Positions 14,169-44,600 of a DNA stretch of 64,000 nucleotides are shown in pieces. The stretch is taken from NCBI GenBank assembly GCA_000002445.1, contig CP000069.1:192001-256000 (forward strand), in the 5' to 3' direction. The position numbers and the translations under genes are program-made. The number at the start of each line of letters is the position of its first letter. Position 1 is the stretch's first letter. Source of the DNA: Trypanosoma brucei (taxonomy: Eukaryota). The notes beneath the pieces were generated by a model. It saw only the letters and a list, made by a program, of their open reading frames with translations. It did no database searches and was not told the DNA's origin.

Positions 14169-15458
<1,290 letters not shown>

Positions 15459-19595: not shown

Positions 19596-19621
19596 CACGC
19601 AGCCCTGTAGACTTCTGCGTG
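19596..19621 (+). promoter_or_regulatory. Procyclin 3' UTR conserved stem-loop ('16-mer' element) downstream of a U-rich tract
   Basis: cacgcag-ccctgtagactt-ctgcgtg is a perfect 7-bp inverted repeat flanking a 12-nt loop, ~200 nt after the stop codon. It is preceded by a U-rich block (19525-19580, candidate 26-mer/U-rich element). The same loop sequence with compensatory stem changes occurs in the GPEET 3' UTR (34385-34406). Confidence 0.6.
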
Positions 19622-20370: not shown

Positions 20371-20508
20371 TCTCCCATATTCTTCGGGGCGGTATTGCAG
20401 TGAAAGTGCCATGCGGGACGCGTGTCAGAGCAGTGTTTGTCTCCCATATTCTTCGGGGCGGTATTGCAGTGAAAGTGCCATGCGGGACGCGTGTCAGAGC
20501 AGTGTTTG
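20371..20508. repeat. 69-bp perfect tandem duplication in the EP-PAG intergenic region (copy 1 20371-20439, copy 2 20440-20508)
   Basis: tctcccatattcttcggggcggtattgcagtgaaagtgccatgcgggacgcgtgtcagagcagtgtttg occurs twice head-to-tail. The same duplication is at 27778-27915 in unit 2, but only a single copy is present in unit 3 (~36483-36551). Confidence 0.9.
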
Positions 20509-22626: not shown

Positions 22627-25600
22627 TTTGTGATTAATTTGGTAATTGCTTTGTGTGGTGTCGCTTTTTTTTTTTCTTTGTGGAGGGGAGGAGGAGGGAT
22701 GTTGTATTTGTGTGCAGTTGTTTTCAAATTAATTATAAATTTGGTAACAAAAATTTCTGCAAATGTTGCTTTTGACTGTGTTTGAGCGTGGCTGTTGGGA
22801 CGTTGACGGGGAATCGCCACGGCAGGGTCATTTCCCGAGAGGGTGCCGATACGTTGTGTTACTTTTTCATTTTCACATCGCGCAAGGATATGGGTATGCT
22901 ACTATTAACAAATCATTTAGCTCCTATCTAGTACGCTCCGCTGCGGCAGAAAAATAAGGGGCCACGAGCCAAATTCTATGTGTCTACGAGCACTGTCAGC
23001 CTTCCAAGGACTCTCGGATCTCTATCGCAGCGAGTTTAGGTTAAAAGTGGGATGAAGAACTCCTCCTTCTGCTTGTTCCGGCCGAACATAGAGGCGTGAC
23101 GGCAGCTCCTTCGTTTCCATCCACGGAGGACACAACATTCGCTGAATTATCTCTTAATGGAGCGTTTTTTTGTTTTTAAGTGTAAAATAACTGTCTGGTG
23201 TATATATATATATATATTGACTGAAAGAAGGAGTCGAGAGCGTCTTTTCCGAGTGCACTTTTCTCCGGCGGATCTCCCACTAACCTGTGGCGTAGGGCTA
23301 TGGCTCCCAAAACACGTGTAAACACTACTGTATGATGTGGGTTATCGTGTTCATTGGCGTGGTAGTACTCTTTAATCCAGCGTATTCCATGTTTGATGTC
23401 ATTGTGTATTTAGAAGCCCACTTTGGAGTAGATCCTTATCCCGGCCTCGGAGGGGATACTGCACACAGTTGCAACGCGTTGACGATGGAGCTCAGGGGCG
23501 CTGTTGGTTAGGTTTTCAAGTTTTGGAGTGACCCAATCTGTGTATTTTCTAGAGCTGAACCGTTAAGCTGCTGAGGGATGCATATTTATGCGGTCACTGT
23601 TAACTTCAGATGAGTTGTTCATCTGCTGAAGCCGTTTCCCCGGACGGTGGCTCTTTATCTCCCTATGTGTTATCCTGGCTTCACTTTGTAAGGCCGCTGC
23701 CTTCACTAGGTTTGTTTTCCTGGTGTCTGACCCTTTTCTGTGGAGGTATCCCGCCTTTCAATTTGCTTGCGATGTTGCATTCCCTGAACTGTGGCGGATT
23801 TGATTCTGTAGCCTTTTCCGTTGGGAGAGCCAAACTCTCAGTCATTCTCCAACCCTGTGTTTCACCACTTGTTTTTACTTTGTTTTTATACCTTCGTTTG
23901 ATTCTGTAATTTTCGTTGCGCGTTTAGTCTGCGCCTACTCCGCTCTCACTGTTTATCTTCAGTTACTTGCTCACAGAAAGTCTGAGCAGATTCGTGGCAG
24001 CTTGTTCCCACTTTACGCATTTATCGACGGGCAAATTCTCGTTACCCTGCGAAGGTGCTCTGGGACTTGGTAAGTAATCAGCTTCTTTTGCTGGCACAAC
24101 ATTTCGGTTTGTTTCAGTAGCTTGGTGACGAGACGTTTTATCACCATCTGGGTTTTACTGTTTCTCGCCTGTGTCTACGTGGCCGTTGTTTTGTGGCTTA
24201 ACCGTCCCTCTGGACTGAATGTTTGAAGCTATATTCATGAAGAACTGCGCGAGTTCCACGTATTGGTTCCTTCCTTTTCTGTTCCACTGCGCTCATCAAC
24301 CCCATTCCTTCTCATCCTTGGTGTCCTCGAGTTTTTGGAGGAAGTGCCTGATCGTCTCTCGGTATTCTGTTCTTCCGTTGTTGCGAACCTCCCTTCACTT
24401 CCCTTCCCGACTGTGCACTATTTTTTGTTTTTGCACCACGTAAGTCTGGCTTGTCTGAGGAGTTTCAAATATTACCCTGAACGCCGCCTGCTTTCCGTTG
24501 TTATGTTCCACCTCTTTGTGCCTCCATCCGTAGTTGTTCCTGGGGCGATGACAATTCCAGGATCGTGCTACCGTGTGTGCGTTAGATTACCGCCCCCTGC
24601 ATCAAGTAGGACATACTGAATCCGCGAAGGCTCTCCGGCTTTCGTGAGGTGTTTCTAGCAACTATCACCTTTGTTTCTTCAACTTCTTGATTTATTGTCT
24701 TTTACTCATCTATTATCTCCCTTTTCTTTAGGTCCTGCATGTCAAAAAGTATACTGTCATATTGGGCGGGAAATCATATCATAACTGTGGTATGGTTTTG
24801 AGGGTTGCAGTCTTTTACCGTGCTGGTTAGCTCCACGGCCTCCACCGAAAAGGGGAGAGCCCGAACGCTGGTTTCCCCATTTCCCCGTCTTTTCGATCAA
24901 GAACCCCTTGCTTTTAGTAGGTATTAGATCGGTAACTGGGAGATTGTAGCGGGTGTTCGTGTGTGGGGAGCGTTGCGCACTCGCACGGTTTTAAAATGGT
25001 TGTTATGTCAAAGCTGTTATTTCCCTTTTGTTCACTATGCCATTTGTTAACCATCTTCCAGTTGTTTGTTATACTCCTATCGATGGATTGTCACTCCTTC
25101 AAATATGGTGCTGTAGTTTGAATACTCTCTTGGTGTGCCGCAAAGTGTGGGATACATAACGTGCCACAAGCTAGCGCTTCCAAGGGGGTTTAAACTCGGG
25201 AACTGTGAGTGTGAGTCTCGAACCAATGCGATGGTTCTGGTCTGCGCTGAAGGACATTTTATAGGGCCCCCGGATCCTCCCTGTGCCCAACTCGGTGATG
25301 CTGAGGTCGATGAATTCCTTCGTTCGCTACGAAACAAAGCATTGGGTTTGGTGGCATTTAGTGCGGTGCCTTCGATGGTGTTGTGCTTTCCTCTCCTGGA
25401 ATGTGCTGGCTCGGGTTAAGATTTTAGCGGGTGCGGGGGAATGCGGCCCAACTTTTTTGCGCGAAATCTCTTGCATTGACTTGCCGCGTAACCCATGGTG
25501 GTTTCGTCAGCCTGGTAGGAGCTGAGACAGCAGCATAATGGGTGGATTCTCGTATCCATTCGTGTGGGCATGCTCCCCACTTGCATGGGTTCCATTTTTG

Positions 25601-26059
25601 AAACATTGGTGCACTGGGGGTGTGTTCCGTAGGAAGGGCCGCGCGGTTGGGGCTTTAAAAGCACGACTGTAACATCTATATAGTGAAGTGGCGGGTGTAC
25701 GAGTTGGGAGTGCAACATTTGAGTGCGGTGTTTGTCCTGCATGCCCCCGACTGCTGGTTTTCAGACTTCTTCGATGCCCGGTGTTTCGTAGCAAAACATA
25801 CCGCTGCCGGCCTAAATGCCGCTGATTCACCACAAAGTGCTTTTCAGTGCCCCCAAACTGGATTGCCAAACTTCTGACAAGTGTATTGTTCCGAGTATGG
25901 TGAGCGAATCCCTTCTCTATTATCAATTCTCGAAAACTCTTCGGGAGTCAGGGCCCACGGAACCGAGGGGGCGGATGAGGGAGAGGGGGAAACAACAATT
26001 CCGCACCGCGAACAGGCACCGCTCCCCTGGACCTCTTCCTCAGATGTGAGGTGCAGTCA

Positions 26060-26320
26060 GCCTTTGTTGTCATTGGGGTTAAGCGGAAAGGTGTGTGTCA
26101 GTAGGTTGTGAGGTGAAAGCGTTTTCAGATGCATAGTGAGCTTAATGTCCTTTTCACAGTATATCGTGTCTGATAGGTATCTCTTATTAGTATAGTCGAA
26201 TACTAGTCAATAGTGCATTTTGTGCAAAATGTCCATTTTGTGGCAGTGATGGGGTTGCTTTATGCTATTCCGTGTCTTGATGGTCATACATTGAAAATAG
26301 GGGTTATCGGGTGAGTACTG
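26060..26320 (+). promoter_or_regulatory. Presumptive procyclin promoter region, unit 2 copy
   Basis: Sequence identical to 18640-18900, shifted by 7419 bp. Same positional inference. Confidence 0.3.
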
Positions 26321-26427
26321 AGTTTAACATGTTCTCGTGATCGCTGCACGCGCCTTCGAGTTTTTTTTCCTTTTCCCCATTTTTTTCAACTTGAAGACTT
26401 CAATTACACCAAAAAGTAAAATTCACA

Positions 26428-26799
26428 ATGGCACCTCGTTCCCTTTATCTGCTCGCTATTCTTCTGTTCAGCGCGAACCTCTTCTCTGGCGTGGGATTTG
26501 CCGCAGCCGCTGAAGGACCAGAAGACAAGGGTCTTACTAAGGGAGGCAAAGGCGGGAAGGGAACCAAGGTCAGCGACGACGATACCAATGGCACTGACCC
26601 CGACCCCGAACCTGAACCTGAACCTGAACCTGAACCTGAACCCGAACCCGAACCTGAACCTGAACCGGAACCTGAACCTGAACCCGAACCTGAACCGGAA
26701 CCCGAACCCGAACCTGAACCTGAACCTGGTGCTGCAACGCTGAAGTCTGTTGCGCTTCCGTTCGCAATTGCGGCCGTTGGTCTCGTTGCCGCATTCTAA
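26428..26799 (+). CDS. EP: EP procyclin, 2 DP + 20 EP repeats
   Basis: 123-aa ORF identical to the unit-1 EP gene except for two fewer dipeptide repeats (12 nt shorter). Same signal peptide, NGT sequon and GPI signal. Confidence 0.95.
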
Positions 26800-27002
26800 G
26801 CTCATGTAAAGAGAAATCTTTTTGGAGGGTCAAAACTTTTTAACAAGGGTGACCCCAACTGTTTATTTAACCCTTCCTTTGGCGCGATGCGCTCGCTTCA
26901 TGGCGTTCCTTTGTGACAGGACACTGACACGCATAATATTTTTTTCAACCCATTTTTTTGAGTTCTATTTTTTGTTTTATGTCTTGGAACCGTCGGCGGT
27001 AG

Positions 27003-27028
27003 CACGCAGCCCTGTAGACTTCTGCGTG
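27003..27028 (+). promoter_or_regulatory. Procyclin 3' UTR stem-loop, unit 2 copy
   Basis: Identical cacgcagccctgtagacttctgcgtg hairpin. Confidence 0.6.
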
Positions 27029-27777
27029 TGCCTGTCAATGTGTTCCTTGGCTCTTTTCAAACGGCTTCTTTTATCTTACCGTTCATATGGTTTTGTCAAA
27101 AATTCATTCACTGCATTTGTGGTCCTCTCCTATGTCTCGTTCCTGCAATGGTTGACAGCAACCTCTTCCATTTGTGACTGAACTTTTTTTTTTTCAAACT
27201 TTTTGCCTTGTCCTTTTTTCGTACTGGGAAAATAGTTCCTTCTAAAACCTCAGGCTAGAAATGGGAGACAAATGGACTTTTGTTGACTCAAGCGATTTGT
27301 CCCTCGATATTTCCTCCATCGCAGCTTCCGTTTGACACCGTGGAGTTGCAACATGGGAAGCAGCGGTTGAAGGAAGCACATTCCTGGTGATGATGCCTTC
27401 TTCGCCTACGGTGGTGCATCATCATGTTTGTTAATATGTCGGGGAAACTTTAAAGCACCTTGAGGGAGTTCACCGTAACTGTTCAAAATTGAGGCCTGAG
27501 CGGTGTTTTGCCTTTTGACTTGCCTTTATTTAACTGTTCTCGTCAGGGGAGCGATTCAGTTGAGTGAGCTGCTGCCACTTTATCTGTTGGGGAGGAGAGG
27601 CTGCGGAGAGGGTAAGCGCGTTGTTTCCATGAACTTTACGTATTTACTGCACTGCCCTCTGTTTTGGTCCACTTTGTGAAATACTCTGGGACAATCAATG
27701 GAGAGTGTGAGATTTTTTGAAATACTTCTGGAGCATTCACCGGCTCGTCGGTCGTCATATGTTCTCGCAGTGTTTTC

Positions 27778-27915
27778 TCTCCCATATTCTTCGGGGCGGT
27801 ATTGCAGTGAAAGTGCCATGCGGGACGCGTGTCAGAGCAGTGTTTGTCTCCCATATTCTTCGGGGCGGTATTGCAGTGAAAGTGCCATGCGGGACGCGTG
27901 TCAGAGCAGTGTTTG
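27778..27915. repeat. 69-bp tandem duplication, unit 2 copy
   Basis: Same duplicated 69-mer as at 20371-20508. Confidence 0.9.
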
Positions 27916-28659
27916 ATGTTCCGGAAGTCTTCGGAGTTAGAGGGCAAATGCTCCTCTTCTCCTTTCGTGCGGCGTGATTCTCATACCGAGGCTTCCACTA
28001 AGCAGGCTGCAACTCTTCTGCTGACTTTTTGGTTTATTCTTTTCCCATATTTCAGTGTTGGAGTGTTTCTCTTGCCGCCCTTGGGAATCGGGCACAGTCA
28101 TATGAAGGCGCTTGCTTCGGCAGCCAAAGGTGGTTCCGTTTGGTATTTCTTGTGGAGACATTTGTCTTCCTTTCCTTTTCGGCCACCTCTTTTCCCATGG
28201 AGAAAGGCCTCTGGTACTGTCCTGCCCGATGATCTTTGCCCCGTTCGTTCCATCATGAATAATAGTTACAAAAGTGTGTGTCGGTACGGCGGTGGATATT
28301 TCCCCAATCGCTTTGGTTGCTTTTACTATTTTGTGGGGCGGTTTAAAGTTGGTAACTCAGTGCACTTCCAAAAAAATTGCGACTCGTACATTTGGTTTTA
28401 TATGGAGGGTGGAAGAGCCGAAAACGTGTATGTGCTTGCTTGGATGAGTCGGAAAATAAATTCTAGTTTCCGTGTATTTTCCGTTCATTACGTCATATAT
28501 GGCTTGGCCTTTAGATTTGTGTAAGGTATGTTTCTTTTCGAAGTTGGTATGCTGGCGGACGTGTTTGTTTAATGTAAATCAGCCAAGGTGTAAGAGTAGC
28601 TGTAATGATAAGTTTCTGCTTCTCCCTTTTTTACTGATGAATGTAGAAACAAAATCACA

Positions 28660-30033
28660 ATGAGGCACGAATTAGTGTTTACCATTGGGTTGTTTGTGGC
28701 TGTTTTATCTGATTCTTCTCAGATATTTTTGCCGCACTGGCGCGATTGGATCCAGGTATCTAAAAACGGGAGTATACTTACAACTCTCGTTAGTGAAGTC
28801 AACAACCACCACAGCATTGGTGAATTCGAGGCACTTTGCAAGATTTACAGAATCACACAAGCGGAGACCCCGAAGCCTTCCTTTAAGAATCGTGAGAAGG
28901 AAGCTGAGATTCTGAAGAAGTTGGAGGAAATGGTCAGTGAAACTGAGGCTGTGGGTGGTGATAAAGGTTCAAGTAAGTTGGGTAAAAGAACGACGGCATA
29001 TCAGGAGATAAAGATACTTTTTGAGAAGGCGAAAAAGCTGAAGGAAGAAATAGAAGTGAATAGGACAAGATCGCTAAATGCAAGTCGTTCTGCTGAGGAA
29101 AATATGTTGAGAGCTGTGTATGGCGACGCTGTGGATGTGGCGAGAAATGAAAATAAAACTCTGGAGGAAGCCATGAGAGGAAACAAATCACTACTGTTCA
29201 ACAGTGTTGATCATGCAAATATGAGTTGTGGTTCTTACGGAGACAAACTGGTTGGAAAGACACTGATCAATGACTTTTTCTGCCTATGTGTGGGAGAGGC
29301 GACAGATTTACAAATAAGAAGCAATAAGTATTATGCACTCGACTTAAACTCAACTAATCACACTGTGTATAATGGGTTTAACTGTCCCTGCAAGGATGAA
29401 ATAAGGAGACCTAAACATGGAAGTTGGACTATGATGGCTGATTATTGCCCAAGCAACTATAATACTTGCGACCCTAGAAAGGTAAAATACAACCATACTG
29501 AGGCATGGGATGTGATTAGTAAAGCTTGCGTGTACAAAAATGTTGCATCGAATGTGAAAACTCTGAAGAGTGCACTAGCTCAGTTTGATGCGTTGGTGAA
29601 TTTAGAGCAGGATAATTATCAAATGAAGGGTATTCTTGGGTACGCGGATATTTCAGAAAACACAAATCGCATCTGCAACGGTTATACTGCTGGATTCACG
29701 TGTGTCAGTTACAATTACACACTTGAAAATGGTGGAATTCCATGGTACAACCGCCTCACTAACGCCACCAAGGAACTACAAGAAATGGCGAAGTATGCCA
29801 AAGAAGCTGACAGTCATCTTTACGAATTGGAAGAGTACCAACATGAGGCAGAGGAAATATATCTTGAAGTGAAACTTGGTGGTGATGCAGAGCTATGGAA
29901 GAGTAGCCGAGGTAAAGGCGAAGGTGACGGTGAAGGTGATGATACTGATGTAAATAATGATGGGCTCAACTATATAAATATTACAACTGACTTTCTTATA
30001 TTATTGTTTTCATCTTTCATTTGTATATCTTAG
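28660..30033 (+). CDS. PAG: Procyclin-associated gene product (PAG family), identical to the unit-1 copy
   Basis: 457-aa ORF, 100% identical in protein sequence to 21253..22626. Confidence 0.75.
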   Translation: MRHELVFTIGLFVAVLSDSSQIFLPHWRDWIQVSKNGSILTTLVSEVNNHHSIGEFEALCKIYRITQAETPKPSFKNREKEAEILKKLEEMVSETEAVGGDKGSSKLGKRTTAYQEIKILFEKAKKLKEEIEVNRTRSLNASRSAEENMLRAVYGDAVDVARNENKTLEEAMRGNKSLLFNSVDHANMSCGSYGDKLVGKTLINDFFCLCVGEATDLQIRSNKYYALDLNSTNHTVYNGFNCPCKDEIRRPKHGSWTMMADYCPSNYNTCDPRKVKYNHTEAWDVISKACVYKNVASNVKTLKSALAQFDALVNLEQDNYQMKGILGYADISENTNRICNGYTAGFTCVSYNYTLENGGIPWYNRLTNATKELQEMAKYAKEADSHLYELEEYQHEAEEIYLEVKLGGDAELWKSSRGKGEGDGEGDDTDVNNDGLNYINITTDFLILLFSSFICIS

Positions 30034-33000
30034 TTTGTGATTAATTTGGTAATTGCTTTGTGTGGTGTCGCTTTTTTTTTTTCTTTGTGGAGGGGAGGAG
30101 GAGGGATGTTGTATTTGTGTGCAGTTGTTTTCAAATTAATTATAAATTTGGTAACAAAAATTTCTGCAAATGTTGCTTTTGACTGTGTTTGAGCGTGGCT
30201 GTTGGGACGTTGACGGGGAATCGCCACGGCAGGGTCATTTCCCGAGAGGGTGCCGATACGTTGTGTTACTTTTTCATTTTCACATCGCGCAAGGATATGG
30301 GTATGCTACTATTAACAAATCATTTAGCTCCTATCTAGTACGCTCCGCTGCGGCAGAAAAATAAGGGGCCACGAACAAAATTCTATGTGTCTACGAGCAC
30401 TGTCAGCCTTCCAAGGACTCTCGGATCTCTATCGCAGCGAGTTTAGGTTAAAAGTGGGATGAAGAACTCCTCCTTCTGCTTGTTCCGGCCGAACATAGAG
30501 GCGTGACGGCAGCTCCTTCGTTTCCATCCACGGAGGACACAACATTCGCTGAATTATCTCTTAATGGAGCGTTTTTTTGTTTTTAAGTGTAAAATAACTG
30601 TCTGGTGTATATATATATATATATTGACTGAAAGAAGGAGTCGAGAGCGTCTTTTCCGAGTGCACTTTTCTCCGGCGGATCTCCCACTAACCTGTGGCGT
30701 AGGGCTATGGCTCCCAAAACACGTGTAAACACTACTGTATGATGTGGGTTATCGTGTTCATTGGCGTGGTAGTACTCTTTAATCCAGCGTATTCCATGTT
30801 TGATGTCATTGTGTATTTAGAAGCCCACTTTGGAGTAGATCCTTATCCCGGCCTCGGAGGGGATACTGCACACAGTTGCAACGCGTTGACGATGGAGCTC
30901 TGGGGCGCTGTTGGTTAGGTTTTCAAGTTTTGGAGTGACCCAATCTGTGTATTTTCTAGAGCTGAACCGTTAAGCTGCTGAGGGATGCATATTTATGCGG
31001 TCACTGTTAACTTCAGATGAGTTGTTCATCTGCTGAAGCCGTTTCCCCGGACGGTGGCTCTTTATCTCCCTATGTGTTATCCTGGCTTCACTTTGTAAGG
31101 CCGCTGCCTTCACTAGGTTTGTTTTCCTGGTGTCTGACCCTTTTCTGTGGAGGTATCCCGCCTTTCAATTTGCTTGCGATGTTGCATTCCCTGAACTGTG
31201 GCGGATTTGATTCTGTAGCCTTTTCCGTTGGGAGAGCCAAACTCTCAGTCATTCTCCAACCCTGTGTTTCACCACTTGTTTTTACTTTGTTTTTATACCT
31301 TCGTTTGATTCTGTAATTTTCGTTGCGCGTTTAGTCTGCGCCTACTCCGCTCTCACTGTTTATCTTCAGTTACTTGCTCACAGAAAGTCTGAGCAGATTC
31401 GTGGCAGCTTGTTCCCACTTTACGCATTTATCGACGGGCAAATTCTCGTTACCCTGCGAAGGTGCTCTGGGACTTGGTAAGTAATCAGCTTCTTTTGCTG
31501 GCACAACATTTCGGTTTGTTTCAGTAGCTTGGTGACGAGACGTTTTATCACCATCTGGGTTTTACTGTTTCTCGCCTGTGTCTACGTGGCCGTTGTTTTG
31601 TGGCTTAACCGTCCCTCTGGACTGAATGTTTGAAGCTATATTCATGAAGAACTGCGCGAGTTCCACGTATTGGTTCCTTCCTTTTCTGTTCCACTGCGCT
31701 CATCAACCCCATTCCTTCTCATCCTTGGTGTCCTCGAGTTTTTGGAGGAAGTGCCTGATCGTCTCTCGGTATTCTGTTCTTCCGTTGTTGCGAACCTCCC
31801 TTCACTTCCCTTCCCGACTGTGCACTATTTTTTGTTTTTGCACCACGTAAGTCTGGCTTGTCTGAGGAGTTTCAAATATTACCCTGAACGCCGCCTGCTT
31901 TCCGTTGTTATGTTCCACCTCTTTGTGCCTCCATCCGTAGTTGTTCCTGGGGCGATGACAATTCCAGGATCGTGCTACCGTGTGTGCGTTAGATTACCGC
32001 CCCCTGCATCAAGTAGGACATACTGAATCCGCGAAGGCTCTCCGGCTTTCGTGAGGTGTTTCTAGCAACTATCACCTTTGTTTCTTCAACTTCTTGATTT
32101 ATTGTCTTTTACTCATCTATTATCTCCCTTTTCTTTAGGTCCTGCATGTCAAAAAGTATACTGTCATATTGGGCGGGAAATCATATCATAACTGTGGTAT
32201 GGTTTTGAGGGTTGCAGTCTTTTACCGTGCTGGTTAGCTCCACGGCCTCCACCGAAAAGGGGAGAGCCCGAACGCTGGTTTCCCCATTTCCCCGTCTTTT
32301 CGATCAAGAACCCCTTGCTTTTAGTAGGTATTAGATCGGTAACTGGGAGATTGTAGCGGGTGTTCGTGTGTGGGGAGCGTTGCGCACTCGCACGGTTTTA
32401 AAATGGTTGTTATGTCAAAGCTGTTATTTCCCTTTTGTTCACTATGCCATTTGTTAACCATCTTCCAGTTGTTTGTTATACTCCTATCGATGGATTGTCA
32501 CTCCTTCAAATATGGTGCTGTAGTTTGAATACTCTCTTGGTGTGCCGCAAAGTGTGGGATACATAACGTGCCACAAGCTAGCGCTTCCAAGGGGGTTTAA
32601 ACTCGGGAACTGTGAGTGTGAGTCTCGAACCAATGCGATGGTTCTGGTCTGCGCTGAAGGACATTTTATAGGGCCCCCGGATCCTCCCTGTGCCCAACTC
32701 GGTGATGCTGAGGTCGATGAATTCCTTCGTTCGCTACGAAACAAAGCATTGGGTTTGGTGGCATTTAGTGCGGTGCCTTCGATGGTGTTGTGCTTTCCTC
32801 TCCTGGAATGTGCTGGCTCGGGTTAAGATTTTAGCGGGTGCGGGGGAATGCGGCCCAACTTTTTTGCGCGAAATCTCTTGCATTGACTTGCCGCGTAACC
32901 CATGGTGGTTTCGTCAGCCTGGTAGGAGCTGAGACAGCAGCATAATGGGTGGATTCTCGTATCCATTCGTGTGGGCATGCTCCCCACTTGCATGGGTTCC

Positions 33001-33469
33001 ATTTTTGAAACATTGGTGCACTGGGGGTGTGTTCCGTAGGAAGGGCCGCGCGGTTGGGGCTTTAAAAGCACGACTGTAACATCTATATAGTGAAGTGGCG
33101 GGTGTACGAGTTGGGAGTGCAACATTTGAGTGCGGTGTTTGTCCTGCATGCCCCCGACTGCTGGTTTTCAGACTTCTTCGATGCCCGGTGTTTCGTAGCA
33201 AAACATACCGCTGCCGGCCTAAATGCCGCTGATTCACCACAAAGTGCTTTTCAGTGCCCCCAAACTGGATTGCCAAACTTCTGACAAGTGTATTGTTCCG
33301 AGTATGGTGAGCGGACCCCTTCTCTATTATCAATTCTCAAAAACTCTTCGGGAGTCAGGGCCCACGGAACCGAGGGGGCGGATGAGGGAGAGGGGGAAAC
33401 AACAATTCCGCACCGCGAACAGGCACCGCTCCCCTGGACCTCTTCCTCAGATGTGAGGTGCAGTCAGCC

Positions 33470-33730
33470 TTTGTTGTCATTGGGGTTAAGCGGAAAGGTG
33501 TGTGTCAGTAGGTTGTGAGGTGAAAGCGTTTTCAGATGCATAGTGAGCTTAATGTCCTTTTCACAGTATATCGTGTCTGATAGGTATCTCTTATTAGTAT
33601 AGTCGAATACTAGTCAATAGTGCATTTTGTGCAAAATGTCCATTTTGTGGCAGTGATGGGGTTGCTTTATGCTATTCCGTGTCTCTGGGTGGGCGTGCAT
33701 TGAAAATAGGGGTTATCGGGTGAGTACTGA
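33470..33730 (+). promoter_or_regulatory. Presumptive procyclin promoter region upstream of GPEET (variant copy)
   Basis: Same upstream sequence as units 1 and 2, except for a block substitution at ~33680-33696 (tctgggtgggcgtg versus ttgatggtcatac). Confidence 0.35.
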
Positions 33731-33836
33731 GTTTAACATGTTCTCGTGATCGCTGCACGCGCCTTCGAGTTTTTTTTCCTTTTCCCCATTTTTTTCAACT
33801 TGAAGACTTCAATTACACCAAAAAGTAAAATTCACA

Positions 33837-34181
33837 ATGGCACCTCGTTCCCTTTATCTGCTCGCTATTCTTCTGTTCAGCGCGAACGTCTTCGCTGGCG
33901 TGGGATTTGCCGCAGCCGCTGATGAGTCGGCTAGCAACGTTATCGTGAAGGGAGGCAAAGGAAAGGAGAGGGAGGACGGCCCTGAGGAGCCGGAAGAAAC
34001 CGGACCAGAAGAGACCGGACCAGAAGAAACCGGACCAGAAGAGACGGGGCCGGAGGAGACGGGGCCGGAAGAGACGGGACCAGAGGAAACTGAACCTGAA
34101 CCTGAACCTGGTGCTGCAACGCTGAAATCTGTTGCACTTCCGATTGCAGTCGCGGCTGCTGCTCTCGTTGCCGCATTCTAA
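33837..34181 (+). CDS. GPEET: GPEET procyclin
   Basis: 114-aa ORF. It has the same signal peptide family ([27 protein letters not shown]), then EEPEET followed by six GPEET pentapeptide repeats, then EPEPEPG and the GPI signal [22 protein letters not shown]. There is no N-glycosylation site, as expected for GPEET. Confidence 0.95.
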
Positions 34182-34384
34182 GCGGATGCAAGCGTGTGAA
34201 GCGCCTCGGAGGAACGAAACCCCTTTGAAAAGGTGGCTTTCGTTTATATATTCTCCATCTGGTGCATCGTGTTTATTTCGTATTATTCCCTGTCAAAAGC
34301 TGCGGATATTCATTTAATATTCTTTTCGTTATATTTTTTTAGTTCTATCCTTTATTTTATCCGTTTTAATCGTCTTCTGAGACC

Positions 34385-34406
34385 CACAGCCCTGTAGATT
34401 TCTGTG
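34385..34406 (+). promoter_or_regulatory. GPEET 3' UTR stem-loop (16-mer-like element)
   Basis: cacag-ccctgtagattt-ctgtg has a loop almost identical to the EP element, with the stem maintained by different bases. Confidence 0.55.
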
Positions 34407-35114
34407 ATGTTTCGGTTGCGTATTCCATAATTTTAAGCGTTTCACTTCTATTTTTTTTCATTCCTTTGAATTTGGATCTTAAAATTATTATTGGTGCCTT
34501 GTGTTATTGTGCGTGCTGCGTGTGAATTTGGTGCTCTGCCTTTTAATTTGTTGGATGAGCTATTTCATTAATTTTTTTGCCTTCTCTTCTTTTGGGTTCG
34601 AATAATAGTTCCTTCTAAACCTTCAGGCCAGAAATGGGAAACAAGTGTTAGACCGGCCAACTTGGGCGAAGGGGTCTGCATGTTGCTTTATTTCATTGGT
34701 GGTTTTATGTGCAGTGTTTCCCTGCTTCAGATGGGCCCCGCAGCTGAAGTTGTTTCGCTGCCCTGCCCCCCACTGCTGCGTTGCTGCTGGAGAAACGATG
34801 TTGGAGGTTGACGGGTGTGTGCTTTTGAAGACTTTGTATGAATATGGAAGGAAGCTCGCAGCGGTTACTACAGGCAGTTAAGGGCTGAGTGCTGTGCCTT
34901 TTCTATTGCCTCTCCCCCTCTTGAGCTATTCTTGTCGGGAGAGTGATTTATATATCCGAGTTTCGGTTAATTGTCCCTTAGGGATGAAAGGCACCTCAGA
35001 GATGAGAGGGCAATGCAACGCTGGTTATCCCAGTTGATGTGCGCATTCATATATACCATTTCCCCATTTTTTTCAACTTGAAGACTTCAATTACACCAAA
35101 AAGTAAAATTCACA

Positions 35115-35504
35115 ATGGCACCTCGTTCCCTTTATCTGCTCGCTGTTCTTCTGTTCAGCGCGAACCTCTTCGCTGGCGTGGGATTTGCCGCAGCCGCTGA
35201 AGGACCAGAAGACAAGGGTCTTACTAAGGGAGGCAAAGGCAAAGGCGGGAAGGGAACCAAGGTCAGCGACGACGATACCAATGGCACTGACCCTGAACCC
35301 GAACCTGAACCTGAACCTGAACCTGAACCCGAGCCAGAGCCAGAACCTGAACCGGAACCCGAACCCGAACCTGAACCTGAACCTGAACCCGAACCTGAAC
35401 CCGAGCCAGAGCCAGAACCAGAACCTGAACCTGGTGCTGCAACGCTGAAGTCTGTTGCACTTCCGTTTGCAATCGCGGCCGTTGGTCTCGTTGCCGCATT
35501 CTAA
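35115..35504 (+). CDS. EP: EP procyclin (EP3 position, downstream of GPEET), 1 DP + 23 EP repeats
   Basis: 129-aa ORF with GKGKGGKG (one extra GK), an NGT sequon, DP(EP)23 using GAG/CCA codon variants, and a GPI signal. Only the last ~55 bp before the ATG (poly-pyrimidine tract and splice-acceptor region) match the other procyclin upstream regions. The 930-bp GPEET-EP spacer (34182-35114) is otherwise unique. Confidence 0.95.
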
Positions 35505-35707
35505 GCTCATGTAAAGAGAAATCTTTTTGGAGGGTCAAAACTTTTTAACAAGGGTGACCCCAACTGTTTATTTAACCCTTCCTTTGGCGCGATGCGCTCG
35601 CTTCATGGCGTTCCTTTGTGACAGGACACTGACACGCATAATATTTTTTTCAACCCATTTTTTTGAGTTCTATTTTTTGTTTTATGTCTTGGAACCGTCG
35701 GCGGTAG

Positions 35708-35733
35708 CACGCAGCCCTGTAGACTTCTGCGTG
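35708..35733 (+). promoter_or_regulatory. Procyclin 3' UTR stem-loop, unit 3 EP copy
   Basis: Identical cacgcagccctgtagacttctgcgtg hairpin. Confidence 0.6.
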
Positions 35734-37295
35734 TGCCTGTCAATGTGTTCCTTGGCTCTTTTCAAACGGCTTCTTTTATCTTACCGTTCATATGGTTTTG
35801 TCAAAAATTCATTCACTGCATTTGTGGTCCTCTCCTATGTCTCGTTCCTGCAATGGTTGACAGCAACCTCTTCCATTTGTGACTGAACTTTTTTTTTTTC
35901 AAACTTTTTGCCTTGTCCTTTTTTCGTACTGGGAAAATAGTTCCTTCTAAAACCTCAGGCTAGAAATGGGAGACAAATGGACTTTTGTTGACTCAAGCGA
36001 TTTGTCCCTCGATATTTCCGCCATCGCAGCTTCCGTTTGACACCGTGGAGTTGCAACATGGGAAGCAGCGGTTGAAGGAAGCACATTCCTGGTGATGATT
36101 CCTTCCTCGCCTACGGTGGTGCATCATCATGTTTGTTAATATGTCGGGGAAACTTTAAAGCACCTTGAGGGAGTTCACCGTAACTGTTCAAAATTGAGGC
36201 CTGAGTGGTGTTTTGCCTTTTGACTTGCCTTTATTTAACTGTTCTCGTCAGGGGAGCGATTCAGTTGAGTGAGCTGCTGCCACTTTATCTGTTGGGGAGG
36301 AGAGGCTGTGGAGAGGGTAAGCGCGTTGTTTCCATGAACTTTACGTATTTACTGCACTGCCCTCTGTTTTGGTCCACTTTGTGAAATACTCTGGGACAAT
36401 CAATGGAGAGTGTGAGATTTTTTGAAATACTTCTGGAGCATTCACCGGCTCGTCGGTCGTCATATGTTCTCGCAGTGTTTTCTCTCCCATATTCTTCGGG
36501 GCGGTATTGCAGTGAAAGTGCCATGCGGGACGCGTGTCAGAGCAGTGTTTGATGTTCCGGAAGTCTTCGGAGTTAGAGGGCAAATGCTCCTCTTCTCCTT
36601 TCGTGCGGCTTGATTCTCATACCGAGGCTTCCACTAAGCAGGCTGCAACTCTTCTGCTGACTTTTTGGTTTATTCTTTTCCCATATTTCAGTGTTGGAGT
36701 GTTTCTCTTGCCGCCCTTGGGAATCGGGCACAGTCATATGAAGGCGCTTGCTTCGGCAGCCAAAGGTGGTTCCGTTTGGTATTTCTTGTGGAGACATTTG
36801 TCTTCCTTTCCTTTTCGGCCACCTCTTTTCCCATGGAGAAAGGCCTCTGGTACTGTCCTGCCCGATGATCTTTGCCCCGTTCGTTCCATCATGAATAATA
36901 GTTACAAAAGTGTGTGTCGGTACGGCGGTGGATATTTCCCCAATCGCTTTGGTTGCTTTTACTATTTTGCGGGGCGGTTTAAAGTTGGTAACTCAGTGCA
37001 CTTCCAAAAAAATTGCGACTCGTACATTTGGTTTTATATGGAGGGTGGAAGAGCCGAAAACGTGTATGTGCTTGCTTGGATGAGTCGGAAAATAAATTCT
37101 AGTTTCCGTGTATTTTCCGTTCATTACGTCATATATGGCTTGGCCTTTAGATTTGTGTAAGGTATGTTTCTTTTCGAAGTTGGTATGCTGGCGGACGTGT
37201 TTGTTTAATGTAAATCAGCCAAGGTGTAAGAGTAGCTGTAATGATAAGTTTCTGCTTCTCCCTTTTTTACTGATGAATGTAGAAACAAAATCACA

Positions 37296-38660
37296 ATGAT
37301 GCACGAATTAGTGTTTATCATTGGGTTGTTTGTGGCTGTTTTATCTGTTTCTTCTCAGAGCGATTTGTCGAGACACAATTGGAGCATAATATCTAGAAAC
37401 CGGAGTGTGTTTACAAAACTCGTTAGTGAGCTCAACAACCACCACAGCATTGGTGAATTCGAGGCACTTTGCAAGATTTACAGAATCACACAAGCGGAGA
37501 CACCGAAGTCTTCCTTTAAGAATCGTGAGAAGGAAGCTGAGATTCTGAAGAAGTTGGAGGAGATGGTCAGTGAAACTGAGGCTGTGGGTGGTGATAAAGG
37601 TTCAAGTAAGTTGGGTAAAAGAACGACGGCATATCAGGAGATAAAGATACTTCTTGAGAAGGCGAAAAAGCTGAAGGAAGAAATAGAAGTAAATAGGACA
37701 AGATCGCTAAATGCAAGTCGTTCTGCTGAGGAAAATATGTTGAGAGCTGTGTATGGCGACGCTGTGGATGTGGCGAGAAATGAAAATAAAACTCTGGAGG
37801 AAGCCATGAGAGGAAACAAATCACTACTGTTCAACAGTGTTGATCATGCAAATATGAGTTGTGGTTCTTACGGAGACAAACTGGTTGGAAAGACACTGAT
37901 CAATGACTTTTTCTGCCTATGTGTGGGAGAGGCTATAGATGTACAAATAAGAAGCAATATGTTTTCGGGACTCGAGTTAAGCTCGAATTACCACCCTGTG
38001 TATAATGGGTTTAACTGTCCCTGCAAGGATGAAATAAGGAGACCCCAAAATGGAAGTTGGACTATGATGGCTGATTATTGCCCAAGCAACTATAATACTT
38101 GCGACCCTAGAAAGGTAAAATACAACCATACTGAGGCATGGGATGTGATTAGTAAAGCTTGCGTGTACAAAAATGTTGCATCGAATGTGAAAACTCTGAA
38201 GAGTGCACTAGCTCAGTTTGATGCGTTGGTGAATTTAGAGCAGGATAATTATCAAATGAAGGGTATTCTTGGGTACGCGGATATTTCAGAAAACACAAAT
38301 CGCACATGCAACGGTCATACTGCTGGATTCACGTGTGTCAGTTACAATTACACACTTGAAAATGGTGGAATTCCATGGTACAACCGCCTCACTAACGCCA
38401 CCAAGGAACTACAAGAAATGGCGAAGTATGCCAAAGAGGCTGACAGTCATCTTCATGAATTGGAAGAGTACCAACATGAGGCAGAGGAAATATATCTTGA
38501 AGTGAAACTTGGTGGTGATGCAGAGCTATGGAAGAGTAGCCGAGGTAAGGGTTACAGTGGAGGTGATGATACTGATGTAAATAATGATGGGCTCAACTAT
38601 ATAAATATTACAACTGACTTTCTTATATTATTGTTTTCATCTTTTATTTGTATATCTTAG
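37296..38660 (+). CDS. PAG: Procyclin-associated gene product (PAG family), diverged/mosaic paralogue
   Basis: 454-aa ORF collinear with the 457-aa PAGs. It is near-identical over most of its length, but has clustered substitutions at residues ~2-45 (MMHELVFIIGLFVAVLSVSSQSDLSRHNWSIISRNRSVFTKLVSEL) and ~213-240 (AIDVQIRSNMFSGLELSSNYHPVY), and GKGYSGGDD replaces GKGEGDGEGDD. Confidence 0.75.
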   Translation: MMHELVFIIGLFVAVLSVSSQSDLSRHNWSIISRNRSVFTKLVSELNNHHSIGEFEALCKIYRITQAETPKSSFKNREKEAEILKKLEEMVSETEAVGGDKGSSKLGKRTTAYQEIKILLEKAKKLKEEIEVNRTRSLNASRSAEENMLRAVYGDAVDVARNENKTLEEAMRGNKSLLFNSVDHANMSCGSYGDKLVGKTLINDFFCLCVGEAIDVQIRSNMFSGLELSSNYHPVYNGFNCPCKDEIRRPQNGSWTMMADYCPSNYNTCDPRKVKYNHTEAWDVISKACVYKNVASNVKTLKSALAQFDALVNLEQDNYQMKGILGYADISENTNRTCNGHTAGFTCVSYNYTLENGGIPWYNRLTNATKELQEMAKYAKEADSHLHELEEYQHEAEEIYLEVKLGGDAELWKSSRGKGYSGGDDTDVNNDGLNYINITTDFLILLFSSFICIS

Positions 38661-41600
38661 TTTGTGATTAATTTGGTAATTGCTTTGTGTGGTGTCGCTT
38701 TTTTTTTTTCTTTGTGGAGGGGAGGAGGAGGGATGTTGTATTTGTGTGCAGTTGTTTTCAAATTAATTATAAATTTGGTAACAAAAATTTCTGCAAATGT
38801 TGCTTTTGACTGTGTTTGAGCGTGGCTGTTGGGACGTTGACGGGGAATCGCCACGGCAGGGTCATTTCCCGAGAGGGTGCCGATACGTTGTGTTACTTTT
38901 TCATTTTCACATCGCGCAAGGATATGGGTATGCTACTATTAACAAATCATTTAGCTCCTATCTAGTACGCTCCGCTGCGGCAGAAAAATAAGGGGCCACG
39001 AGCCAAATTCTATGTGTCTACGAGCACTGTCAGCCTTCCAAGGACTCTCGGATCTCTATCGCAGCGAGTTTAGGTTAAAAGTGGGGTGAAGAACTCCTCC
39101 TTCTGCTTGTTCCGACCGAACATAGAGGCGTGACGGCAGCTCCTTCGTTTCCATCCACGGAGGACACAACATTCGCTGAATTATCTCTTAATGGAGCGTT
39201 TTTTTGTTTTTAAGTGTAAAATAACTGTTTGGTGTATATATATATATATATATATATATATTGACTGAAAGAAGGAGTCGAGAGCGTCTTTTCCGAGTGC
39301 ACTTTTCTCCGGCGGATCTCCCACTAACCTGTGCCGTAGGGCTATGGCTCCCAAAACACGTGTAAACACTACTGTATGATGTGGGTTATCGTGTTCATTG
39401 GCGTGGTAGTACTCTTTAATCCAGCGTATTCCATGTTTGATGTCATTGTGTATTTAGAAGCCCACTTTGGAGTAGATCCTTATCCCGGCCTCGGAGGGGA
39501 TACTGCACACAGTTGCAACGCGTTGACGATGGAGCTCTGGGGCGCTGTTGGTTAGGTTTTCAAGTTTTGGAGTGACCCAATCTGTGTATTTTCTAGAGCT
39601 GAACCGTTAAGCTGCTGAGGGATGCATATTTATGCGGTCACTGTTAACTTCAAATGAGTTGTTCATCTGCTGAAGCCGTTTCCCCGGACGGTGGCTCTTT
39701 ATCTCCCTATGTGTTATCCTGGCTTCACTTTGTAAGGCCACTGCCTTCACTAGGTTTGTTTTCCTGGTGTCTGACCCTTTTCTGTGGAGGTATCCCGCCT
39801 TTCAATTTGCTTGCGATGTTGCATTCCCTGAACTGTGGCGGATTTGATTCTGTAGCCTTTTCCGTTGGGAGAGCCAAGCTCTCAGTCATTCTCCAACCCT
39901 GTGTTTCACCACTTGTTTTTACTTTGTTTTTATACCTTCGTTTGATTCTGTAATTTTCGTTGCGCGTTTAGTCTGCGCCTACTCCGCTCTCACTGTTTAT
40001 CTTCAGTTACTTGCTCACAGAAAGTCTGAGCAGATTCGTGGCAGCTTGTTCCCACTTTACGCATTTATCGACGGGCAAATTCTCGTTACCCTGCGAAGGT
40101 GCTCTGGGACTTGGTAAGTAATCAGCTTCTTTTGCTGGCACAACATTTCGGTTTGTTTCAGTAGCTTGGTGACGAGACGTTTTATCACCATCTGGGTTTT
40201 ACTGTTTCTCGCCTGTGTCTACGTGGCCGTTGTTTTGTGGCTTAACCGTCCCTCTGGACTGAATGTTTGAAGCTATATTCATGAAGAACTGCGCGAGTTC
40301 CACGTATTGGTTCCTTCCTTTTCTGTTCCACTGCGCTCATCAACCCCATTCCTTCTCATCCTTGGTGTCCTCGAGTTTTTGGAGGAAGTGCCTGATCGTC
40401 TCTCGGTATTCTGTTCTTCCGTTGTTGCGAACCTCCCTTCACTTCCCTTCCCGACTGTGCACTATTTTTTGTTTTTGCACCACGTAAGTCTGGCTTGTCT
40501 GAGGAGTTTCAAATATTACCCTGAACGCCGCCTGCTTTCCGTTGTTATGTTCCACCTCTTTGTGCCTCCATCCGTAGTTGTTCCTGGGGCGATGACAATT
40601 CCAGGATCGTGCTACCGTGTGTGCGTTAGATTACCGCCCCCTGCATCAAGTAGGACATACTGAATCCGCGAAGGCTCTCCGGCTTTCGTGAGGTGTTTCT
40701 AGCAACTATCACCTTTGTTTCTTCAACTTCTTGATTTATTGTCTTTTACTCATCTATTATCTCCCTTTTCTTCAGGTCCTGCATGTTAAAAAGTATACTG
40801 TCATATTGGGCGGGAAATCATATCATAACTGTGGTATGGTTTTGAGGGTTGCAGTCTTTTACCGTGCTGGTGGCGGCTTTGCCGTCAGAATTCTTGCCGC
40901 ATACTTTGAGGTTGTATGTGCTATTCATGAATTTACGATATTCTTTTGCTATATCTTCTGAGCCAGCAGCGGCTTTGCCCGACGGAGCACAACAGCAGTC
41001 ATTTTCATTCAGCCTTTCCGCAACTGCCCTCCTCGCATATCATACTCACCGTCCACACAACATAACTTCCAATTTTATTGAAAAAGAAATTACACAACAG
41101 ATCTTGCTTGACATTTCCCCCCATATGCTGTGTCGTGTTTTACTTGGTCCTTAACCTCTGCCGCATCATTTTCTTTCTGCATCTATGTCTGACGTGCCTT
41201 TCTGCCATGCAAATGTTCAGTCATGCTCCGCGCTTACATTGCTCGTCGACCTTCGCCATGTCGCCATGTCAGCGTTGTATGCTCCTCGGTCTCCTATTTG
41301 AAACTTTGTGATATCCATCGCTGCCTCTTGTTTCGTCGGAAGTCAGGGATATATTTCACGTTCCTTCACCGCCTTGTCAGACCACGCAAGCACGTCCTGT
41401 ATGTTGCTCCTGAAGGTTGACCACGCCCTCTTTGGTAAGCCCCACCGTATTTCTCATTGCTTCGATGGTTATTTTGTAGTAATTTGTTCCCGTATCATCT
41501 CTCTGCCTCCCGTATGGGTCGTCACAAAATCCCTTCCGCATTTGGATGTTAGCGTGTTCGGCGGCGTATTCCTCTGACCTGACATTTTCCCCCGCTGTCT

Positions 41601-44600
41601 CCTCAATTTCCACACCTCTACGGTTGCACGCCCTTACATCCTTTGATCGTCTCCACTGAACTTCCCATAATTTTTTCCCCGCTTCTAGGATGTCTTCATG
41701 GCCTCCCGGCGTTTGGACTCAACGTATTGGCGAGGTTGCGGATGCTTACGACAAGTTTCATGGCAGTGGTGGAACCGAAAAACGCTACCTTTGCTGCTTG
41801 CCGTATTTTCGCGTTCCACGCCCCTGGTATCCTTGTCGTCCGCGGTCCTTTCCCCCGCGCCCTCGGCCGTTGTGGCCCCTTCTTTATTATATGGATGAAG
41901 TTTGGAGGTATGAGACTTTGGCGACACCGACGTTGGGTATGCTTTGGTAGGGCAAGGGCAAATTATGGTCTCTCTTCTTTGCTCCTCCGCCGTTTTAGCG
42001 TTCCTTTTTTCCACCCTCTCCACGGAAACTATTTTCATCGCTTTCTTCCGGTCTCGTGGCCCTGTCCTTGCACCCTTGACGGCGGGTTTCTACGCGTCGT
42101 TTTAGCTGGTGTTTCAGAAACTCAGTATTCGTGCGCAAGAGGCACCTTCGTGCATTTCCTTCTCCCAGTCTTATCCCTTCATCGCCATATTCACTGCTTC
42201 CCGCTGGAGTGTCGCATTTTCCACCACTTCCCAATGGCAGGGTCAAATCTTTCTTCCTATAGTGATAGAGGCAAATGTGTCACTTATACCAGTTTGTAAC
42301 TGGTTGTTCTTTGGTCCTTGTGAGCATTTCCTTGCACTCTCCCAGATTATTCCTAGGCTTCTTCGCCTCGTTTTGTTCATCGCTTCTGGTTTGAACCTCC
42401 CTCATGTCTGTTCGTATGTTTTTTAAAGTTTGTCACATTTCCGGGGAGTGCCCCGCTCACACAAAACACATTGATAGCATCCGTGGCGCACACGAGGGAT
42501 TTCACAGCATCTTTTAAAGCCTTCCCATGCGTCTGCCACTTCTGCCCACTCGTGTCCCTCAACTATGTCACTCATGGTTGATCCTTATCAGTGGACGATA
42601 AAGTTACATTCTGTGCCCATCACTGGATCGCGAACTCTCTCTGCCTTAGCCTCGGGGGCTATCAATAGCGTGCTTAATTCGTTGGCAAGCGCTTCGTTGT
42701 ATTGTTTCTCCTTTTCAACGCCTTCAATTTGGTATTTACACAATCGACATTTGCTGAAACACTTATCAGGGAGGGAGGCTGTTCCACAGGTCTCGCCAAG
42801 TTGTTCCGGGGGTGCGAATATGAAATTGTTAAAGGGCGAGATTTCTTTTATTCCGGCATGCGATCGCTTCTTTAGTAGAGACTCGATGTGACCGAGAAAG
42901 TTTCTCCTGCACGTGTTTGTCCCAATCCCAGCTTCGAGCGCAGCATATCCCTCGTTACGCTTCTGCTTTATGTCTCCCACCAAAACATCAATTTTACATA
43001 TTAGGTGTGTCATTCTGCAGTTGTTTCTTCCACTGCAATCTCATCTGTTATTGCACTGTCTTTCCAAACAACGTGGTGGAAGAAAATAAGCTGCATAGAA
43101 ATCACCTCATTCTTTTTACTGACCGTGAAAATCACCCTTCCATACGCGGCTCGGGATTCCATCATCCGCGCGACTCGGTCTTTCATTGTTTCCAGTAGCG
43201 TATTTAGCACCTTTTCAATTGGCACCGGTTCTGCACGATGACTGCATCCTAATATTCAGATGTCCCTTTAATCCTGTACTTTTCCATGTTGCCGAAGATT
43301 ATCGTTTCTGCAGTGGACTAACTGCCTAAACTCACCAGTTCATTTGTTGAAACTTTTCAGTCCGTCTTATTGAATATCCCTATTCTTTGCGGCGCATGAG
43401 CCTTCCTCCATTCGTCTTTTGCCTTTGCTTTTATACCCACCCGCGTATGGCAAATTTGTGTGCACTCTGGAGCCAATGTCCAAGGAGCTTTAAGTATGGA
43501 GTACACCTTGATTTTTGGTGTCGGAGCACCATCCCTCCACTGAATTCAGCCATTCAGGTATTGGATGACTTCTAGGATATTGCCGGTTTATTATGTCTGA
43601 AAAGCATCCTCTTATAGCGTTTGACATGGGGCGGTATTCCGTCGCCCTCTTGTTTGCCACTTTTCAAACAAATATCACTCGAGCTTATTTGGGCACACCT
43701 TGTTTTTGCGTGCTACGAAATCTCGGAAATCGTATGCGTTGTTTGGGGCTGTGTGCTTTCCACCCTCTCCCCGCTTGAAGTGTTGACGGAGAATCACTTA
43801 AAAGGAATGCCGTAGTTCATCTTTGCATGGATAAGTCCAGAGTGGAAGGCTGCAAACGGTTCCGTCTGGGGAGCCCTGTTCGGCTAGCACTACGGCATTG
43901 AGCGTCCGTAATCTTGTCCTTCCTAATCTTGTCGTTTGTTAAGCGTGCTTCGACGTTTTTTTTTCTTTTTGACGGAGGGCAAACGATGATGTTTTCTCAA
44001 GATCGCACTTCAATGACAGCATACTCTTTAAGGGTGGCTTGGCTGCATCATCAACCGGACGAAAGATCATTCGAGGAAGCGTGCGGTGAAACGAACGCTC
44101 GTTGTTACGGGATGGTGACGCGAAATTTGGCGGATATGCCGCGTGTTGGAAGAGAGAACAAAAGGCGCAGAGATTTGTGAATTACTGTGCCTCACCGTTC
44201 AGCCTGTCAACAACAGATGGGGGCACGTTTTGGCAGCGTCCACAAAGCCCAGGCTGGAGGTTGTTGAACGCGAGAGCGGCACCCCCGCCGTCGAGGGGCT
44301 GAAGACAAGACGTTATGTGAGCATTTTATCTCGGACCAGTGAAAGCGTAGGTGTGCCACAGGATGGGGTCCACTTTGTTCTCCACCACCTCGTGCAGAGG
44401 AAATATGTTGAAGGTGCGGAGTCAAGCGATCAACATCGTGCCGTCGGTGCTGAAATAGTGAAAAAGGGAGAACAACATGCTGAAGGAGGCGCGGCACACA
44501 ACCGGATGATGGAGCTCAACGGCGGATTTGTTTGGGCGATATCACCGGCAAAGTGTGCCCCCGAGGACTACGCGTCTGTTTGGGGTTAGCTACTATAAAG

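Follow-up and report, generated by a model that had tools for sequence, protein, structure and literature searches.

The window, that is, the whole 64-kb stretch of DNA that was analysed, is part of chromosome 6 of Trypanosoma brucei brucei TREU927 and holds its procyclin (GPEET/PAG3) expression site; in a homology search TREU927 GPEET2 procyclin matched the GPEET open reading frame (ORF) at 33837–34181 with 100% identity. Self-BLAST and a repeat finder located three head-to-tail copies of the procyclin transcription unit in 17379–40871, with a tandem repeat period of approximately 7.4 kb (table 1). Units 1 and 2 contain one EP gene each and unit 3 contains GPEET followed by EP3, the first procyclin ATGs being found at 19009, 26428 and 33837, respectively. 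Every unit also includes a PAG3-like ORF of approximately 208 codons and a GRESAG2.1-like ORF of approximately 455 codons, which in unit 3 are the 208-aa and 454-aa ORFs that follow GPEET and EP3. The 457-aa ORF of unit 1 gave a Pfam VSG_B match, which fits GRESAG2.1, and the 454-aa ORF of unit 3 is a near-identical copy of it.

The array is preceded by the genes of a receptor-type adenylate cyclase and of the haptoglobin–haemoglobin receptor (HpHbR), and those large ORFs that lie beyond approximately 46 kb have the opposite orientation, so that the array ends at a convergent strand switch. The gene order GPEET–EP3–PAG3–GRESAG2.1 downstream of HpHbR is found in unit 3, and is also that of T. 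b. gambiense, whereas units 1 and 2, being without GPEET, do not show the order of the GPEET/PAG3 site. Three separate gene models that start with a procyclin gene are in the literature for this region (Tb927.6.450, Tb927.6.480 and Tb927.6.510/520), and the triplicated locus is already present in the TREU927 reference annotation (Tb927.6.450,.480,.510 and.520). Long minus-strand ORFs overlie the EP genes (18985–19398, 26404–26805 and 35091–35510); they are a mechanical outcome of the GAA/CCN-rich repeat and provide no evidence for genes.

Table 1. Features of the procyclin array and its surroundings (positions in the window, except for the last two lines, which refer to the GPEET loci of the two outgroups).
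Feature	Position	Strand	Remarks
Receptor-type adenylate cyclase	8172–11930	+	upstream of array
Haptoglobin–haemoglobin receptor (HpHbR)	14178–15458	+	upstream of array
Tandem array	17379–40871	+	promoter, procyclin gene(s), PAG3-like ORF, GRESAG2.1-like VSG_B-domain ORF
Unit 1	17379–24797
Unit 2	24798–32204
Unit 3	32205–40871
30-bp direct repeat TTGAGGGTTGCAGTCTTTTACCGTGCTGGT	17379–17408, 24798–24827, 32205–32234, 40842–40871	+	at every unit junction
Unit-1 promoter copy	18647–18894	+	variant core
Block CTTGATGGTCATAC, unit 1, classed as derived	18857–18870	+	5 substitutions and 2-nt deletion
Unit-1 EP gene, GPEET/EP3 chimera	19009–19392	+	GPEET-like to ~19039, EP3-like from ~19060
Unit-2 promoter copy	26066–26313	+	variant core
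Block CTTGATGGTCATAC, unit 2, classed as derived	26276–26289	+	same as unit 1
Unit-2 EP gene, same chimera as unit 1	26428–26799	+	EP repeat region 12 nt shorter
Unit-3 (GPEET) Pol I promoter, canonical	33473–33722	+	~−250 to −1 from inferred start site
Block CTCTGGGTGGGCGTG, unit 3, classed as canonical	33683–33697	+	core promoter, ~−40 to −26; in 5 of 7 aligned promoters
Inferred start site and 83-nt precursor leader	33723–33805	+	to acceptor AG 33804–33805
31-nt 5′ UTR of GPEET mRNA	33806–33836	+	inferred from splice-site position
GPEET procyclin gene, unit 3	33837–34181	+	TREU927 GPEET2 identity; Pfam Trypan_PARP match
EP3 upstream segment common to GPEET leader	35056–35114	+	59 bp; no promoter
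EP3 procyclin gene, unit 3	35115–35504	+
30-bp repeats, T. b. gambiense DAL972 (L001)	8367–8396, 16986–17015
30-bp repeats, T. equiperdum (L002)	8370–8399, 16952–16981

Promoter copies and inferred start site

That a procyclin promoter stands before each procyclin unit is textbook knowledge. The 367 bp that precede the GPEET ATG can be recognized from sequence as the RNA polymerase I (Pol I) promoter of the chromosome-VI procyclin expression site, being essentially identical to the promoter fragments of published expression plasmids, which experimentally drive procyclin or reporter expression. The proposal of an earlier note on this DNA, namely that the shared upstream region is the procyclin Pol I promoter and that each unit has its own copy, is thereby supported. 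The plasmid promoters used for comparison were taken from Sunter et al. (PMC3325195, Table S3) and are those of pSPR2.1, the Lister 427 EP1-locus promoter, and of p3227, a tetracycline-inducible promoter of the pLEW100 type; the pLEW100 promoter is the procyclin/GPEET promoter (PMC2734056). In an alignment of approximately 228 bp, two single positions distinguish unit 3 from p3227, and units 1 and 2 add just the block described below. Unit 3 is thus the same as the GPEET/PAG3 ‘PARP’ promoter of the pHD and pLEW100 vectors and of the GPEET-trm template, near-identical for at least 230 bp upstream of the start, in the same place before GPEET and sharing its leader, splice acceptor and 5′ UTR. 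The sequences upstream of GPEET in T. b. gambiense and T. equiperdum are near-identical to it as well. TREU927 has three such promoters in tandem instead of one, the copies of units 1 and 2 differing from it by a rewritten −38 to −26 segment and by a chimeric EP gene in place of GPEET and EP3. The p3227 promoter, of the pLEW100 lineage and widely called ‘EP1 promoter’, has the diagnostic bases of the chromosome-6 GPEET type.

According to the literature, each procyclin locus has its own Pol I promoter, and α-amanitin-resistant Pol I initiation and CITFA binding have been reported for both the EP1 and the GPEET promoters. The chromosome X EP1 promoter (EP/PAG1, EP/PAG2), represented in the comparison solely by that of Lister 427 in pSPR2.1, has the same architecture and, starting at the block, is identical to the canonical window promoter as far as +38 at least. 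Approximately 10 diagnostic positions, found between −230 and −45, set it apart from the chromosome-6 type. None of the three window copies has the EP1 bases, so that all three are of the chromosome-VI type; they have the diagnostic bases of chromosome 6 in common, among them a C at 33665 that is specific to TREU927, and this indicates that the three promoters arose within this locus.

The start site was placed at the A of GGGTGAGTACTG, at approximately 33723 (equivalent positions, 18895 and 26314), because in p3227 the two tet operators directly follow GGGTGAG; in the pSPR2.1 file the sequence gggtgAGtactg is found, with two capitals at the spot where the tet operators of p3227 are inserted. 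From the site so inferred it is 114 nt to the first ATG of each unit and 83 nt to the base that follows the acceptor AG (33804–33805); on reading the sequence, this AG is the first one past the pyrimidine tract. The promoter is therefore just upstream of the first procyclin gene and the start upstream of the trans-splice acceptor. Start-site mappings in the literature disagree by a few nucleotides (PMC2936537).

The procyclin promoter is described as approximately 250 bp long with two essential regions in the 70 bp proximal to the start (PMC5814960, a review), and as having a four-domain architecture like that of the rRNA promoter, with its bipartite core I/II and upstream elements III/IV (PMC6562600). 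The likeness to the T. brucei rRNA promoter is taken from these reviews, by which the two are structurally very similar and functionally exchangeable (PMC6562600, PMC5814960), but with little primary sequence in common (PMC5814960). By this likeness, positions −38 to −26 would fall in the core part. Linker-scanning work (Sherman 1991, Brown 1992) reportedly delimited a core element from about −40/−37 to −11/−7.

Upstream of the first ATG the three units are alike not only over the approximately 370 bp pointed out in the earlier note, but over 1,630 bp, up to the repeat boundary, as found by alignment and self-BLAST, so that there is no island of identity limited to the promoter. EP3 of unit 3, for which the note had proposed a common leader of approximately 55 bp and no promoter of its own, shares 59 bp with the GPEET leader (35056–35114 correspond to 33778–33836). 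Some of the polypyrimidine tract lies in this stretch, together with the acceptor AG and the 5′ UTR, i.e. splice signal and UTR only, which supports the proposal.

The variant core-promoter block and its polarity

The block replacement that sets the unit-3 promoter apart from the other two is real, although the earlier note had placed it 2–3 nt off; it is 140–154 nt before the ATG, in line with the approximately 140–155 nt estimated there. The changed columns (unit 3/units 1 and 2) are 33685 C/T, 33686–87 TG/--, 33689 G/A, 33693 G/T, 33695 G/A and 33697 G/A, and four of the five substitutions are GC-to-AT transitions. By calculation, the changed positions are at approximately −38 to −26 from the inferred start. 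Besides the block, units 1 and 3 show no difference in the remaining approximately 1,620 aligned columns of the 1.63 kb, and unit 2 has the block and three single-base differences farther upstream. Under a uniform model, the probability that seven changed columns cluster by chance within 13 nt is approximately 3 × 10⁻¹², which argues for one event rather than accumulated drift. Provided that the start site is as inferred, the block lies inside the essential start-proximal 70 bp, i.e. in the core promoter: over these approximately 70 bp unit 3 is canonical, and units 1 and 2 have the five substitutions and the 2-nt deletion.

The polarity of the change was determined by comparison with T. b. 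gambiense DAL972 and T. equiperdum, each of which has a single unit at its GPEET locus, and with the two plasmid promoters. CTCTGGGTGGGCGTG is present in both outgroup loci and, in the alignment, in the pSPR2.1 (EP1 locus) and p3227 promoters, and is therefore invariant among five promoters, which represent two loci and four strains or subspecies and vary at flanking positions. Among the seven aligned promoters CTTGATGGTCATAC is found in TREU927 units 1 and 2 only. The sgRNAs directed to the EP1 promoter in a 2026 Bdf3 preprint also contain the canonical block, and were the sole match in a full-text literature search for the block sequences. Thus, judging from the alignment, the CTCTGGGTGGGCGTG form of the GPEET unit is the canonical and ancestral one for both GPEET and EP1 promoters, and CTTGATGGTCATAC is derived. 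The earlier note, in which the GPEET copy was the substituted one, had the polarity reversed.

Searches with the EP proteins returned GPEET-type proteins and unrelated weak matches and no EP entries; EP proteins are absent from the protein cluster collection. Exact look-ups of the window proteins and of TREU927 GPEET2, a search of a plasmid collection and that of the variant block against metagenomes gave no matches, and for a canonical 19-nt string adjoining the block on its 3′ side the metagenomes contained nothing beyond chance matches of 19–21 nt. As far as searched, no earlier description was found of such an allele, derived and clustered, in the core promoters of two units of a tandem array of three.

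In the canonical sense strand, 33687–33720 (approximately −36 to −3) form a G-quadruplex-like pattern, G3-N1-G3-N15-G4-N5-G3, of which the variant loses the first two G-runs. The idea of a G-quadruplex was downgraded, since T. b. gambiense breaks the fourth G-run (CGGG to TAGG), which makes its conservation doubtful.

Origin of the array

The 30-bp direct repeat that marks the unit junctions occurs exactly twice in both T. b. gambiense and T. equiperdum, where it flanks the single unit at a spacing of approximately 8.6 kb, i.e. the size of unit 3. The presence of the repeat at all junctions and on both sides of the single unit points to triplication via unequal recombination, of which the repeat is, on this evidence, the likely substrate. 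Repeat-mediated amplification and deletion have been described in trypanosomatids (PMC8065229). The procyclin array resembles trypanosomatid amplification between short direct repeats in that the repeat flanks the ancestral unit and marks the junctions; it differs from trypanosomatid segmental amplification in that here a complete Pol I transcription unit is amplified, with the promoters multiplied along with the genes.

In units 1 and 2 the EP gene resembles GPEET up to and including codon 11 (ATT, Ile), and EP3 from codon 18 (CTC, Leu) onwards. The GPEET/EP3 crossover that, as read from these junctions, deleted GPEET is thus located in an interval of approximately 20 nt (approximately 19039–19060, signal-peptide codons 11–18), and the chimeric structure implies a GPEET promoter as the ancestor of the unit-1 and unit-2 promoters. 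These EP genes have a unique Ala20-to-Ser change (GCT to TCT) and are 12 nt of DP/EP repeat apart from one another.

Of the 5,327 positions compared downstream of the EP gene, 78 distinguish units 1 and 2 from unit 3, with patches of 28 differences in 20893–21393 and 21 in 21893–22375, versus 0–5 per 500 columns elsewhere. From their clustering, these patches have the look of ectopic conversion by paralogous genes, so that the promoter block, too, may have been imported from elsewhere. The patches fall in the PAG3-like and GRESAG2.1-like ORFs, and in the first of them unit 3 resembles the outgroups. In the second (21893–22375, part of the GRESAG2.1-like ORF), TREU927 differs from T. b. gambiense and T. 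equiperdum by approximately 93–95 mismatches per 500 columns, versus 12 between the latter two, suggestive of segment replacement or of rapid evolution of this VSG_B-domain gene.

These observations can be combined in a scheme in which unit 3 would retain the ancestral GPEET–EP3–PAG3–GRESAG2.1 structure together with the ancestral promoter. Unequal recombination at the 30-bp direct repeat would have amplified the whole transcription unit in tandem, the crossover in the signal-peptide codons would have removed GPEET from units 1 and 2, and one clustered multi-nucleotide event would have rewritten approximately −38 to −26 before these two units separated. For this reading as a whole, namely a triplicated procyclin promoter with an ancestral unit 3 and a derived, clustered core mutation in units 1 and 2, we estimate a probability of approximately 70%.

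Alternative explanations and functional consequences

The earlier note had regarded the block as a GPEET-specific substitution that might underlie the differential expression of GPEET and EP. The idea is prompted by the fact that in the window the block, which is in the core promoter, separates the GPEET-first unit from the EP-first ones, but it is now hardly tenable. A control element specific for GPEET should be absent from EP promoters, and the block of the GPEET unit is that of the Lister 427 EP1-locus promoter and of the EP1 sgRNAs. Furthermore, the GPEET promoter also serves to transcribe EP3 of unit 3, units 1 and 2 with their promoters are themselves recent derivatives of a GPEET unit, and the subspecies with a single unit have no alternative block at the locus. 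The repression that GPEET undergoes in late procyclic forms maps to a glycerol-responsive element of 25 nt in its 3′ UTR (PMC1277927). Since GPEET and EP3 share a promoter, and repression acts through the 3′ UTR, the block cannot explain GPEET versus EP regulation. An equally improbable alternative is that the block, or the triplication, is a sequencing or assembly artefact absent from the real TREU927 genome. Tandem repeats of 7.4 kb that are almost identical pose difficulties for assembly and a single TREU927 assembly was examined, but the two copies with the variant block differ from one another at three upstream and eight downstream positions and in EP repeat length, a new sequence of 14 nt cannot come about through collapse or chimerism of reads like those of unit 3, and the three procyclin-first gene models of the literature also speak against it. 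It is also unlikely, though less so than an artefact, that CTTGATGGTCATAC is a functional ‘EP-type’ allele gene-converted into units 1 and 2 from another procyclin locus, e.g. EP1/EP2 on chromosome 10, in which case units 1 and 2 would be fully active and carry a second natural promoter type. The conversion-like patches found elsewhere between units 1/2 and 3 are in keeping with it, and the identity of EP1- and GPEET-type promoters downstream of the block would allow a converted tract to extend unseen. Smircich et al. (PMC4747651, Tables S4 and S6) reported that the cores of EP1 (M38222.1) and GPEET (S60066.1), taken as ±50 around the start, differ in predicted curvature and have 94.5% identity, a figure that the size of the block would fit. 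The 427 EP1-locus and GPEET-type promoters have only one or two differences in the core region, fewer than an identity of 0.945 implies, and no simple difference count reproduces the latter. An EP1 allele with the variant block would account for the divergence, and such an allele may exist. However, the 427 EP1 promoter and the EP1 sgRNAs have the canonical block, and the nearest EP1-diagnostic base, approximately 8–10 nt upstream of the first change, was not co-converted, which would require a very narrow start of the tract. Also, no donor is present in the 64-kb window. A templated origin of the block from within the window was considered and rejected: apart from the block itself, nothing there matches the variant 16-mer with fewer than four mismatches.

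With regard to function, promoters 1 and 2 are altered and, as far as can be judged from the position of the changes, most likely weakened. The rewritten and 2-nt-shorter core would change Pol I initiation at these units, and unit 3 would then be left as the fully canonical promoter of the array. Independent initiation at each unit, as suggested in the earlier note, is a reasonable idea for a canonical promoter, given that procyclin loci are known to have a Pol I promoter each; for units 1 and 2 it is less certain, as their core promoter is altered. The stronger proposal is that the block acts as a natural ‘linker-scan’ allele, substantially lowering initiation at two of the three promoters or re-tuning it during the life cycle; it is offered tentatively, the odds being against it, and the possible routes may include a changed contact with basal factors, the 2-nt shorter spacing and the loss of two sense-strand G-runs. 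Somewhat more doubtful than such a role, and still less improbable than an imported EP-type allele, is that the block is selectively neutral, i.e. that the core tolerates it and all three promoters fire equally, a multi-nucleotide mutation having been fixed by drift and the cluster copied by the second duplication. T. brucei Pol I promoters have very little primary sequence in common, and it is reported that their elements can be interchanged (PMC5814960, PMC6562600), and the block has been kept in both derived units, as expected for a tolerated change. Neutrality is, on the other hand, difficult to reconcile with the location of the change within the proximal 70 bp that holds two essential regions, with the 2-nt shorter spacing to the start site and with the invariance of the canonical block in five promoters whose flanks vary.

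Published Pol I terminator elements are 2–3 kb downstream of GRESAG2.1 (PMC2731899). In the array the repeat ends approximately 2.2 kb past the stop codon of the GRESAG2.1-like ORF, and the terminator region, 38660–41660, straddles the 3′ repeat boundary at 40871. The inter-unit spacers (22626–26314 and 30033–33723) probably hold an incomplete terminator, so that read-through into the promoter of the next unit is conceivable.

The procyclin promoter is among the very few regulated promoters of trypanosomes and drives most inducible expression vectors. The promoter system and the triplicated locus being already known, the variant block appears, from sequence comparison, to be a modestly interesting natural allele of the core promoter. 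The present analysis corrects the picture in that the normal copy is that of GPEET, and the derived allele belongs to the two EP-only units, where it provides a ready-made natural mutant for the sequence specificity of the Pol I core element. For practical purposes, TREU927 reads or guide RNAs aimed at ‘the’ procyclin promoter meet three copies of two sequence types, and the diagnostic bases of the chimeric EP genes could act as unit-specific tags in RNA-seq. If the block does lower or re-tune initiation, the array would consist of one strong promoter, that of unit 3, and two attenuated ones, and would represent a dosage adjustment of surface-coat transcription in an organism that is usually said to be without promoter-level tuning.
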